Of a stretch of 64,000 bases of DNA, positions 27,678 to 36,059 are shown piece after piece. Where the stretch lies: NCBI GenBank assembly GCA_051362555.1, contig CM120641.1:26790401-26854400 (forward strand), given 5' to 3'. The notes below the pieces were generated by a model, which was not told the DNA's origin, did no database searches, and was given only the letters and a program-made list of their open reading frames with translations. The position numbers were made by a program, and so were the translations under genes. The stretch comes from Lingula anatina (lineage: Eukaryota > Animalia > Brachiopoda). Position 1 is the stretch's first letter. Each line of letters starts with the position of its first letter.

Positions 27678-30600
27678 ATGGTGAGTAGAAAATGAGACAT
27701 CATACAATATGTGAGCGATATCAATGTTGTCAGATGGTCAACAAGTGGTTCTCTTTAATTATTTTTGTAAAACAATCAGTAAAATGATCTGAAATGAATA
27801 GTGCTTGGTATGTTTACACCCTGTTTACTTAGAGCACCGGTAACTATCGGTTGTTTCCACCCTTGTGCTTCTAAGTTAAATGAACTTCTCTCTGTTTGAA
27901 TTGAAACGTGACAGTTTATTGCCTCAATATTACATACATTTGCAATTATTAAATCCTGTTACATAGGTGAATGGTGAAAATGCTTCTCTCATCTCTTAGG
28001 GGGAAACTCCCCCTTTGCTTGCAGTAAAGAGGGCGGTAAAATAACGGGGCGGTAAAAAATGTTACACATTGAATATCTTATACCCATTGTCAAAGTCCAT
28101 TGCTGACAAGATGGTAAACCGTTTGTAATGGGACACGGGATAGTTGCTTGTAATTTCCCACATAGATTTTTGAAAAATATATATTACTATTTAACAAAGG
28201 CCAAATAATATTTGTCACTGTCAATGTCACTGCCAGGTTTACTCAGCTGGAAGTAACCATCAAATCAAAAGTAATGATTAGTGCACGTAGTTTCAACTGA
28301 AATTCAACATGATCTGGTAAAATCGGATTCATATCACTAATAAAATCATTTCGTGTTAATTAATGTAAGCAAATATATCATTTGTACCTCTGGCTTAACC
28401 ATGGTAAAAGTGAGGCGTTACCAGTTTTAATGGTAGTACTTGGCAACTGATACCGTCTTGTTTATGAATGTAAGTGGTAGTTTTATGTGAAAGCATTACT
28501 ATTAGTAATATGTACATTCTTTCACTCATCACTCATCCCTCAAACACTTGAATCTTTTCCATGAATGAGAATTTGATGTACTGATGCCTTTCTTACTCTT
28601 ATTCTGGCCATGAATTATAAATGTTTTAAGGCTCATATGTTAGGTACTGGCAACAACATACAGTCGCTACATGGTATAAAAAGTTTAATACATTAAATGT
28701 GTATAATTTCTGCACTTTCAGGCAGACCAACTCACAGAAGAACAGATTGCTGGTATGTACTATGCAGCATAATGAGGACTGATGATGATAGCCTGATAAT
28801 GAGTCAGAGATGTGTTAGGAGATTATTTTGTGTAAAAGACAAGATAGTGTTTAATATGAATTGATTTACCATGATAACAAATTTAGGCTGTGCAAAAAGT
28901 GGTTTGAATGAATTTATCTGCAATTTGCATCTTTGAACCATAAGCATTTTGTCATGCCATGATCTTTAACCATGTGGATTTTTCATAAGTATCACTAGCT
29001 AAACCCGTAAATAAATATTTTTTCCATGTCACCAGAATTCAAAGAGGCATTCTCCCTGTTTGACAAAGATGGGGATGGGACCATCACAACCAAGGAGTTG
29101 GGCACTGTGATGAGGTCACTTGGACAGAACCCTACAGAGGCTGAACTTCAGGATATGATCAATGAAGTGGATGCCGATGGTAGGGACAGCCTGGTTGCAT
29201 GCTAGTTTATGGGACATTGTCATGAAAGCCCAGCTCTTGAAATGTTAATTACTACCCTGTTAAGATATATTCAAATGAGATATGGATACTTTGGTACATA
29301 ACTCATCCGCCCAACTGGCTGGATACAGGAAATGAAACAGGTCTTTGCATATCTTTGACTTATTATGATGAAAGTAGACCGGCTGTGGTTTATATTAAGT
29401 TTTTTTATTTTTGTTTTTATTATTATTTTTTTTTTTAACAACAAATTTTATTACCCCCGGGCATCAGCCTCCAAACATAATCCTAATGAAATGGTTCCCA
29501 AGAGCTGTGGCAGGTGAAGTGAAAACCATTAAAACTACTGAAATAAATACATGAAAATCCCACTGGCTGAGAGGATTGTCTGAAAAATCAATATAGAGCC
29601 ACTGGTTATTAGCCAATTTGGCTTCTTCGAATGCATGGACATTGGGTGTTAGGTTGCATAAAATTAACTATGGCCTGGGAAAATGTGAGCATGATAACCA
29701 GTTTGAAATACTCTTTATTAATAGTATAGGCTATAATTGATTTATATACAGATTATATTTATTGTTCTGCCCTATATCAAGTTTCTGAACTATTATATTT
29801 ATCTTTTTTTTTTAGGTAATGGGACAATTGATTTCCCAGAGTTCTTGACCATGATGGCCAGGAAAATGAAGGACACAGATAGTGAAGAAGAAATTCGTGA
29901 AGCATTCCGTGTTTTTGACAAAGATGGTAATGGTTTCATCAGTGCAGCTGAGCTGAGGCATGTGATGACCAACCTGGGTGAAAAATTAACAGATGAAGAG
30001 GTTGATGAAATGATCAGGGAAGCAGATATTGACGGTGACGGTCAAGTGAATTACGAAGGTATGAAGCTGTTGTGGTTTCCTGCTGCTTGTTGCTTTACTG
30101 TACAGTGTGTGGCTTGATGTAGTTTTAGGAGAGTGCATTTCTTCATAACGCTATTTGACACTTTTGTTACTAGTCCTGCATCCGTGTGCTGTTTTCACTG
30201 TGTGCACTTTCCTTCTTTTTTCTTCCAGAGTTTGTTAAGATGATGACATCTAAGTAGAAAGCAAAGCCTCTTCGATGTTTTATTACAGCAGTTTGCTGTT
30301 GTGCACAGTGATGCTCTCAGAAGATGGACTGTGTATTATACAGTTAAATATGTAAAATTGGTCTTTTTCTGAAAGTATGGCACAGTTATCTAGTCTAGAT
30401 TATACCTTTTTCGTTGCAGAGTTTGTTTCAATGATGTTAAGTAAGATGTGATTTGCTGGAACCTTGAAAAAATGGTAGAGTTTATTTATAAATGCATCCT
30501 ATCATGGTTTTCAAGGTTAAACGATTTGCATGAACTGTTGGATAAATTGGAAAAGAAGTTGTTAGTGTCCATTTCTGGATTGCATCATTTTTTTAGCCTC

Positions 30601-31436
30601 TAGCGTTTCTCTTCGTAATGTATTCTTATCACTTTTTGTATGAAGTGTAACCTTTCTTTGTACCTATTAAATATATTTTATTTATGTAGAAGAGTGCAGT
30701 GTTTGTTAATTTTGTTGTGTGAGGAGGCAAACTAAGCATATGCTTCACACTTACATTTCTTTACGGCATGTTTGGTGAACGCATGTAAGTATTTTTTATT
30801 TTGTTAATTTGAATATGATTGGTTTGCTTTATAGTCCTGGACCCGTATTCTGAAGATCATGCATAAAACTTTTGTAAGCAGCTGCAGTCTAGAGAGACTT
30901 GAAGGAAAATTTATTCATAGACTAGGGAGTACCACCAAAAGTTGGTTTTCCTAAACGTTTCAAAAAATTGTTGCCGTGTAATAATATGTAACAACAAAAG
31001 AAATTAAATGTGACACAGATTCTCTAAGACTATTTAATTGGAATACGATCCCAGGCTGTAGAGTGAAAAATCATACATTTCTTGTACAGTACAAGTAGTC
31101 TTTTGTGTAAATTGCAATCTTTCCAAGATTATGTTCTTGCACTGTAACTATCATAAATAGATTTAAGCACCAAGTGCTCCTTAAAAGCAACATTGCATAA
31201 TGTCTTAGAAGTTTTGAGTTTCACAATTTTTACACTTAACTGAGTGAATATAAATTGCACTATTTCTGTAGCTCAGCACGGGGTAATGGAAGGTAGGGCT
31301 GGGGGGCCAGGGAGGGGAGCATGCCTTGGGACCTGGGGCTGTCTGCATGGGTTTGAAGTGGTTCCTTCCTACCATCATCCTAACCGGATGCTTTTTCCTC
31401 ATTTCAGAGTTTGTCACCATGATGACGAGCAAGTAA
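27678..31436 (+). CDS. CALM: Calmodulin, 149 aa canonical invertebrate isoform ending EFVTMMTSK
   Basis: Exons 27678-27680, 28722-28752, 29036-29179, 29816-30058 and terminal exon 31408-31436 give the standard invertebrate CaM sequence ([14 protein letters not shown]...[11 protein letters not shown]). Confidence 0.97.
30229..30257 (+). CDS. CALM: Calmodulin alternative terminal exon a: (E)FVKMMTSK*
   Basis: ccttcttttttcttccag|AG TTT GTT AAG ATG ATG ACA TCT AAG TAG; phase matches the exon 4 donor. Confidence 0.9.
30420..30451 (+). CDS. CALM: Calmodulin alternative terminal exon b: (E)FVSMMLSKM*
   Basis: ccttttttcgttgcag|AG TTT GTT TCA ATG ATG TTA AGT AAG ATG TGA. Confidence 0.85.
31408..31436 (+). 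CDS. CALM: Calmodulin alternative terminal exon c (canonical): (E)FVTMMTSK*
   Basis: ctttttcctcatttcag|AG TTT GTC ACC ATG ATG ACG AGC AAG TAA; AATAAA near 31955 and 32134. Confidence 0.93.
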
Positions 31437-33838: not shown

Positions 33839-36059
33839 AGGCTTTTACAATTCATAGCCTTTCTTCCTTAAAATCGCAAAGTTGTCACGGACGTGCCTTG
33901 TACTGGGATTGCGATGCATCAGCTGCGGGATTCGTGCCCACGCCTCCTCCCATTTCGTTCCGCCATTTGGTGACGAAGCAGACGAACCAATCTCATTGAC
34001 ATTCTCTTCCATGTGATTTGATACTACACGACCAGAACACATATGACGAACGCCATGTTTTTTTTAGATCACTCATTACTATTTCATCGTCCATTTCTTA
34101 TATATATGAATAAATTTTGATATTACGTTATGAAAATGCTTTGCTTTACTCAGAAATTTCATTTTCCCAACCCGCCTGATTTAATAAAACGAACGCCTAG
34201 CGAAACACCTACGAAAGAAATAGTTTTTTAAAAAGAAAAAAAAAAGAGTTGATAAAACAATACTGCTGCACTTCTATACGCGTTTCACACAGTTGGAAAG
34301 CAACCGTGATATAAATCGGACATCAACGACTATTTCTACCGAAATTCCTCTGTACCTTCTTTTACACGTTGCTGTAAGTATGTAAGTCCCTATGCATCCA
34401 AGCACAAGAAGTGAGATGCACTGTGTACATTGTATATACCCCGAAAGACTCGTTCTTGATCATCGTGAAAACAAGAAAAAGAAAGACTTAACACTTTTAC
34501 AAACAAACTGCGTTTCTTGAAAAGGTGGTTTTAGAAGACGGGGAAAAAATAAACTTAATGATTCTCTTTCGGCTTTGAAAAGGTTATCTCTTTTTCACAC
34601 ACACACACTCATGAATACAAACGCGCCGGTACAGCCTTTTTCACAGCGTATAAGTAATCTTGATCTGCCAAAGCAGTATTTTCCAAGGCAAGCACAGCAC
34701 GAAGCATAAAACAAACTGTGCAGGTGAAATAAACAGTATATATAGGGGAGAAAACGTGTCAATATTTCACCAACATACAAATTTCGTTCCTGCCTTAAAT
34801 TACGACAAAAATGGGCAAGAAGTACATCAGCAAAAATCACAGATACACACCTGTTAGAGCAGAAAAAGAGTGCATACTTTATTCTGTACACAAGATCAGA
34901 ATAACCAGCTTATTACGCTATCATCTGGACACCCAAACCTGACCAACAGATCGGAAGAGATGCGCAGAATTGCTGATGAGTGCAGGGAAATGGTGCAGCC
35001 AATATGATGCTTTGGCAAAGAAAGCGAAAAAAAAAAAAACATAAGTGGTAGATCCCATACGACTAGGCACATACCCGGTACGTTTAGAAAACACAAATCG
35101 GGTTGCGTGGGGTAGAATACGCTAAGACAGGAAAATGAATTCATCCGCCCTAAACAGGTTTTTGGATACTGGTGGGAGGGGGAAATTTTTCGGTACATAT
35201 GAGGATCTGGCATAGTAAGAGGGTCGTAGAGATAAGGCGGGGGAGTTCATAACCAAACCTAAGAAGTGAAATCGACGAGGAAGATGATATATCTTTATCT
35301 TAAAAACATTGGTGGTCGTATAAGCTTGTACTTGATTCTAAATGCCCAGTAAATAAAACACCAACTTTTATCCCTAAATACTACCTGATCCACATTCACT
35401 ATTCTACTCCCTCTCGACAACAACATCGAGACAACTCGACAATAATATCGAGACAAATGAAACCATCAACGACGAGTTTTACGCCAGTGCCTAAACAAGT
35501 AGGACGCAATACAGCTATTTTTGTCTTCTCTGAATTAAATTAAATGCAGTAAACCTAACCACATAGAGAAAAATCGTGGTTTCAGCTTTCCACAGTAATT
35601 TTCCGTATCGATTACTGTACTCTGGTCTCAGTCGAGGTTGTTGACACGAGCGTGAAAGATCACCTCAAGCGACAGTAATAATCGTCTTACCAACTGCTAA
35701 CCAATGGATTGACTTATTAGATCATGCGAACTAGAAAACAAGACAATGACACCCCTGTGTTTGAACTTTTCTAATAATCTGACTGAACGGATAGTAGTAG
35801 AGGGCCGAAAGGGTGCCTGAACATATGAAGCATTGATCTTTAAGTAACTCGCAGGCATTTAGACTATCCAGCAGTCCCCCAGGAATGTGCGTGTATCTGA
35901 ATGTTTGTGGATCTTCCCCTGTCTATGCATCTACGCCCTTTGCACAAGAAAGGAAAGGAACATAGAAACCTGTCAGTTTGAAACTGCTGTCACGAATAAC
36001 GTAAATCAATATCAAGGTGCTTGGGTGTTATTAGGGCCTAAAAGTGAACAGAAACGAAA

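Follow-up and report, generated by a model that had tools for sequence, protein, structure and literature searches.

Duplicated 3′ coding exons can supply a gene with several homologous C-termini through alternative use of poly(A) sites, as described by Martinez Gomez et al. 2021 (PMC8373072). In those cases buried or core residues are kept, surface residues vary, and some human genes have three or more C-termini; in human, 37.2% of events of this class were detected at the protein level, compared with 1.8% for others (PMC8373072). An array with this structure is found in a calmodulin gene of the brachiopod Lingula anatina, in a stretch of 64,000 nucleotides (assembly GCA_051362555.1, contig CM120641.1, positions 26,790,401 to 26,854,400 of the forward strand) that was analysed as a whole and is termed the window; positions are those of the window. 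The Lingula array differs from the cases of PMC8373072 in that the duplicated exon codes for only 9–15 residues (four of the six copies are below the 42-base cut-off used there), in that the host protein is almost invariant, and in that six copies and a relic are present. The main text of that paper has no occurrence of calmodulin or of the prefix CALM. The class of mechanism is known; the host gene is unexpected, and the arrangement is not confined to Lingula.

Plant calmodulins with C-terminal tails added by splicing include petunia CaM53 and rice CaM61. The oyster calmodulin-like protein CaLP also carries an extra tail, as stated in a title cited in PMC5040781. In these proteins the C-terminal tail changes the location or partners of calmodulin, as the Lingula array may do, but the tails are non-homologous extensions or belong to separate genes, unlike the homologous last exons of Lingula. 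Calmodulin has also diversified by gene duplication: abalone has four genes, and sea urchin, ascidian, amphioxus and flatworm have two, with one gene reported in most invertebrates and a single Lingula sequence, XM_013526062, used in that comparison (PMC6171432). The abalone genes resemble the Lingula gene in having five exons, four introns and an ATG-only first exon. They encode non-identical proteins with different untranslated regions (UTRs) and tissue patterns, and 11 of 54 substitutions are in exon 5; this diversity comes from separate genes, splicing having been excluded by the authors (PMC6171432), whereas residues 1–139 in Lingula come from one locus. Vertebrate CALM1-3 likewise provide several calmodulin mRNAs, and the long-QT calmodulinopathy sites E140 and F141 (PMC6243062) are invariant in Lingula too. 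Three vertebrate genes, however, encode one identical protein, whereas one Lingula gene has up to six predicted proteins.

A literature search gave no prior description of such an array for calmodulin; most subscription journals were outside its reach, and a two-exon precedent is possible. One mussel gene is said to produce two calmodulin transcripts that differ in the last exon, a report that is unconfirmed and was not found by the search. The available text of the Lingula genome paper and its supplement treats calmodulin at the gene level only (PMC4595640), and no such array is described in the available text of an oyster paper (PMC5040781) or of a paper on EF-hand splicing (PMC9177970). When longer proteins were searched with exon 4, no Lingula calmodulin isoform record appeared in the best 120 of 3310 matches, which are mostly multi-EF-hand fusions and uninformative on annotated isoforms. 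Some of the endings may already be listed by automatic annotation.

The calmodulin gene and its array of last exons

The complete calmodulin gene is on the + strand of the window, with GT-AG introns throughout. A TATA-like sequence, a putative promoter box, is present at 27589–27595, 5′ of exon 1. The coding part of exon 1 consists of the ATG only (27678–27680, donor GTGAGT) and is followed by exon 2 (28722–28752), by exon 3 (29036–29179), which encodes EF1 and the start of EF2, and by exon 4 (29816–30058), which encodes residues 59–139 and ends with the first base of the E140 codon. Exon 4 has one donor only, a phase-1 site (AAG/GTATGA at 30058) that splits the E140 codon after base 1. Its 81 amino acids are a 100% match to residues 64–144 of PDB chain 8zlw_N, and one residue differs from the calmodulin part of 4il1_A. 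With endings a or c, described below, the gene has 149 codons counting Met, the canonical length. As judged from its translation, the locus is a canonical calmodulin of four EF-hands and 148 residues.

Six last-exon copies of the same phase are found 3′ of exon 4 on the + strand. Each has a CAG acceptor, completes the E140 codon and carries its own stop. An initial annotation of this DNA had proposed six mini-exons with these coordinates, peptides, acceptors, common phase and stops, and all of these were found again. Exon a (EFVKMMTSK, 30229–30257) has the strongest acceptor and is only 162 nucleotides from exon b (30420–30451), with no poly(A) hexamer in the interval. Exon c (EFVTMMTSK, 31408–31436) has a CTAAC branch point at −25 and AATAAA at 31954 and 32134. 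Exon d (32308–32354), with CTAAT at −35, encodes EFVKMMTIPLFDYDQ before its stop and is six residues longer; exon e (32578–32609) encodes EFVIMMTGKQ and a stop. Exon f (33798–33838) encodes EFCIMMGGSKAAL and a stop, displays Cys142 and is followed by AATAAA at 34109 and 34183. The predicted products of a to f comprise 148, 149, 148, 154, 149 and 152 residues, the start Met not counted.

The motif YAG-ARTTY-N6-ATG, a search pattern that leaves M145 outside, occurs six times in 30059–34300, compared with a mean of 0.026 (maximum 2) in 2000 Markov shuffles. Elsewhere in the window, on both strands, it is found only in the EFLTMM stretch of exon 4 and of the partial exon-4 copy upstream. A relaxed peptide scan of the array detected no further copy with an acceptor. 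No calmodulin exon 1–4 sequence is present between the copies in the window, which argues that the copies are exons and not pieces of separate genes. In its predicted structure the array is one of tandem exon duplication-derived C-terminal substitution.

The count of six made initially holds for intact copies, but a seventh, decayed one had been overlooked. This relic (33207–33250, + strand) has VTMMSNK and a stop at 33227–33250, but it lacks an acceptor and both the E and the F codon; an AAG that ends at 33206 is the closest one and gives an in-frame D-G-I-stop. With a matrix trained on 48 exons from other animals its score is 26.8 bits, and no sequence outside the array exceeds 7.7. At the level of sequence, the relic acts as an internal control that shows the fate of a copy without selection, and as a sign of loss it suggests a birth-and-death turnover of the array.

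Splice signals were assessed with a matrix of the intronic 23 nucleotides from 16 constitutive acceptors in the window (13 of the TTC7B gene and three of calmodulin), which contains no coding information. Acceptors a to f rank 1, 5, 9, 4, 2 and 3 of 208 AGs in the array, and their scores of 6.1–14.6 fall inside the range obtained for real acceptors by leave-one-out (0–13.9) or exceed it. The chance that six of 97 YAGs would all be in the top nine is 8.5e-8, with a cut-off set post hoc. By a matrix of 16 training sites, each of the six copies is predicted to have competent splice signals. Branch-point consensus matches are found at only three of the six (c, d and e).

In the 150 nucleotides 3′ of the stops, all 15 copy pairs are within shuffled nulls, i.e., the 3′UTRs have no similarity to each other. 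On the other hand, E140, F141, M144 and M145 are invariant in all six copies. Variation is found at position 142 (V or C), position 143 (K, S, T, K, I and I for a to f), positions 146–148 and in tail length. Exons a and c differ by three silent codons and one replacement, and a and e by five silent and two replacement; these counts confirm the earlier observation that codon usage differs between copies with F141, M144 and M145 kept. Because the cores are kept although similarity between the 3′ flanks has fallen to background, the copies are old. That the intact copies are old, homologous and under selection is supported by the strong acceptors, by diverged flanks around kept cores and by the decayed internal control. 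The same view in the initial annotation gains from evidence independent of it: the acceptor matrix, the flanks and the silent-only divergence in arrays of other animals.

AATAAA or ATTAAA hexamers are present 3′ of b, c, e and f, as had been noted, and also of d (32360), which makes five of the six copies. Exon a likely uses the poly(A) site of b, as no hexamer separates them. A T-over-A skew of +0.106 across 30059–34190 is reversed to −0.120 beyond; the reversal after 34190 is weakly consistent with a transcription unit that ends after f.

Similar arrays in other animals

With a pattern formed by the end of exon 4 and its donor, at least 117 metagenome loci (labelled L001 and so on) were detected, and flanks were taken for 80. 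The loci collapse to 98 distinct intron starts, or 97 if L102 is treated differently. Among the matches listed, 45 loci have at least one strict last exon, and no strict last-exon match is found on the opposite strand in 181 kb of those loci. In 26 of the loci listed, the first last exon is followed by 1.2 kb or more of sequence, and five of these loci have more than one last exon. One of the five, L055, was dropped, its two last exons belonging to two tandem calmodulin-like genes, which leaves four arrays in 25 loci; with 2 kb required, three of 11 loci listed have arrays. The Lingula array has only the exon cores in common with these loci, and any common origin with the other arrays is conjectural.

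These arrays consist of two to four exons: three in L001/L040, four in L002, two in L026/L057, where contigs end, and two in L067. A fifth loose match in L002 (EFPHML...) lacks the second Met and is below the peptide cut-off; it was dropped. No EF-hand exon is found between the copies in L001, L002, L026, L057 or L067. Gene layouts differ in that L001 is without intron 2, L026 has intron 2 and an additional intron precedes residue 99 in L067; the array loci therefore come from different animals. L026 and L067 align over exons only, and their introns do not align. Both display EFCAMMCSK followed by EFVSMMMSK, in the same order, with five silent and no replacement codon differences in EFCAMMCSK and one and none in EFVSMMMSK. 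EFVSMMMSK is also the first exon of the L001 array (three silent, no replacement), and EFVNMMMQK is common to L002 and L006 (three silent, no replacement). Silent-only differences are what selection on alternative peptides predicts, though the counts are small.

Among 40 loci listed with one visible exon, 11 different endings are present, with variation at positions 143, 146 and 147, and 20 have the c-type ending, the commonest animal ending in these metagenome loci. Cys142 is found only in arrays (Lingula f, L026 and L067) and in none of these 40 loci. With Cys142 and Ser143 respectively, exons f and b resemble the pair of exons in L026/L067, which may reflect either descent or convergence.

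Some of the loci display additional features. In L039 (3297–6182, gene-oriented, + strand), an internal exon coding for residues 59–90, i.e., the EF2 end, the central linker and helix E, is present in five clear tandem copies and one divergent one, at 3297, 3646, 4592, 4958, 5495 and 6087, and is flanked on either side by exons that occur once. The four copies inspected are bounded by AG and GT, and the array looks like a cluster of mutually exclusive exons in calmodulin. Exon 4 of L002 (1–187) and of L019 (1–187) is 96.8% identical with unrelated introns, and the last exons are an array of four in L002 and EFVTMMCSK in L019; this suggests paralogous calmodulin genes with a homogenised exon 4. 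In L067, a divergent calmodulin-like gene (30–47% identity) is found on the reverse strand after the array, ∼7 kb downstream of the donor.

Probable use of the copies and alternative explanations

It is probable, on the sequence evidence, that the majority of the intact copies serve as alternative last exons, with both the UTR and the protein under selection; that all six are used falls slightly short of an even chance. The single exon-4 donor would be joined to one of six acceptors, and the transcript would end at a poly(A) site either specific to that last exon or shared with another. Selection of the 3′ splice site, in concert with cleavage and polyadenylation, would determine the choice, as described for homologous C-terminal substitutions (PMC8373072). 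Exons a and b, with no hexamer between them, would be distinguished by acceptor choice alone. Messenger RNAs that end in such terminal exons would escape nonsense-mediated decay. The products would have residues 1–139 in common, with an intact EF4 loop and hydrophobic pocket, and would differ at 142 and 143, in the tail from 146 to the end, and in the 3′UTR.

E140 is the position-12 Ca2+ ligand of EF4. The C-lobe pocket is lined by F141, M144 and M145 (PMC9874072); the human long-QT mutations include E140G and F141L (PMC6243062). As these four residues are fixed, each isoform is predicted to bind Ca2+ and to anchor targets normally, and the result would be a set of calmodulins with full Ca2+ competence whose mRNAs are used in different places and at different times. 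The tuning of the target pocket that the initial annotation proposed is overstated, since pocket and ligand residues never vary. The proteins from a and c are probably almost equivalent and come from mRNAs with different UTRs. Copies d, e and f, which are divergent, would add a difference in tail-dependent contacts and are candidates for altered contacts. Some protein differences may be tolerated and not selected, because 143, 146 and 147 vary in single-exon loci, and the 3′UTR may be the main output of the array.

Several observations weigh against use of most copies under selection. VTMMSNK and the stop are still intact in the relic, and a core can thus look healthy for a time despite decay. 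The weakest acceptor of the six is that of c, the carrier of the most canonical ending. In 21 of the 25 listed loci a single last exon is found, and comparison of the 3′UTRs and introns of the Lingula array with the at least 117 loci yields, apart from the exon cores, only a few matches, all short and weak. Poly(A) hexamers occur no more often than expected by chance, with AATAAA at 0.96 per kb in the array against 2.31 on the + strand of the window and ATTAAA at 1.69 against 1.20; since they are not enriched, they carry no evidential weight for the array, and this part of the initial argument does not stand, although the positions given for b, c, e and f were right. Docking/selector pairing, as in Dscam-type clusters of mutually exclusive exons, is not convincingly present: the best inverted repeats are 72–79% complementary, and no shared arm was found that could pair with a site 5′ of every exon, although short or imperfect elements could escape detection. 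No exon-hiding hairpins were found; in L026 and L067 the region covered the array only on the opposite strand or in part.

The copies might all serve only to vary the 3′UTR, with selection on mRNA level, stability or location, the residue differences representing drift between interchangeable proteins. The invariant pocket and ligand residues fit with this, as do the single residue between a and c, the 11 endings in 40 listed single-exon loci of other animals, where 143, 146 and 147 vary, and the several genes that vertebrates keep for one identical protein (PMC6243062). Such drift would not be expected to leave EFCAMMCSK, EFVSMMMSK and EFVNMMMQK recurring in separate loci with silent changes only, or to confine Cys142 to arrays (none of the 40 listed loci with one visible exon has it), and d and f carry extra tails of four to six residues; this explanation is rather unlikely. 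It is more doubtful still that only one or two copies are live, a and/or c with their canonical 148-residue endings, and that b, d, e and f are decaying pseudo-exons. The array does contain a decayed copy; b, d, e and f are of non-canonical length with up to five of nine replacement codons relative to a or c, and a single last exon is the rule in most other loci listed. Against this, the acceptors of d, e and f are the fourth, second and third strongest of 208, and the E, F, M and M codons are intact despite flanks at background, where neutral decay would not spare them in four copies.

An assembly artefact (collapsed alleles), or a remnant of six deleted tandem calmodulin genes, is very improbable. 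The Lingula assembly is heterozygous at 1.6% (PMC4595640), and a partial duplicate of the calmodulin gene is present 11 kb upstream; alleles, however, would be ∼98% alike over the flanks, and the copies share nothing beyond ∼45 nucleotides. Exon 1–4 remnants are absent between copies, a and b are very close together, and the same layout is found in independent assemblies of other animals, twice in duplicate (L001/L040 and L026/L057).

Neighbouring features and significance

The partial duplicate of the calmodulin gene (16597–18978, + strand, outside the array) comprises the promoter, exons 1–3 and the start of exon 4 and is 87% identical. A stop after 79 codons would give a 79-residue product with the N-lobe only. 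It is a probable pseudogene because five silent and five replacement changes are present in 76 codons and the exon-4 acceptor has changed to AAG. Its exon 3 might be spliced to exon 4 of the main gene. A 0.5 kb segment duplicated at 14439–14943 and 18976–19499 (71% identical) marks the break-off of the partial copy. Between the partial duplicate and the main gene, exons with a weak match to the BBS7 beta-propeller (E 9e-4) are found at 21052–23560 on the − strand.

On the − strand at 4530–5327, a single-exon open reading frame of ∼259 residues matches Pfam ETX_MTX2 (E 1.5e-5), with relatives of 50–55% identity in ribbon worms, annelids and nematodes. TTC7B, the source of 13 acceptor training sites, is at 44989–63865 (− strand) with 15 exons mapped; one 53-residue exon is 100% identical to a Lingula anatina protein, and the 15 pieces match at 86–100%, the shortfall being at piece ends. 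Long imperfect inverted repeats at 50841–51135, 52315–52998 and 12755–12931 are probably small transposons.

A broader proposal is that invertebrate calmodulin is in many cases not a single fixed protein, that exon arrays arose in the calmodulin genes of several lineages (Lingula and four or more other loci for the last exon, L039 for the EF2-linker exon), that their products are tissue-specific and target-selective with the Cys142 class conserved beside Met144/Met145, and that they were overlooked as the exon codes for ∼9 residues. This is put forward tentatively and leans towards doubt. Calmodulin is a textbook invariant protein. If the exons are used, one locus would produce natural variants with 139 identical residues whose differences are limited to helix H, the tail and the 3′UTR, a clean set for the role of the last ten residues. 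The same set would allow one to ask what maintains several calmodulin mRNAs, their UTRs, as is usually proposed for vertebrate CALM1-3, or the proteins that they encode. Gene models would then be missing a class of exons of 29–47 nucleotides, and where a second invertebrate calmodulin has been described from transcriptomes alone, it may in some cases be a splice form.

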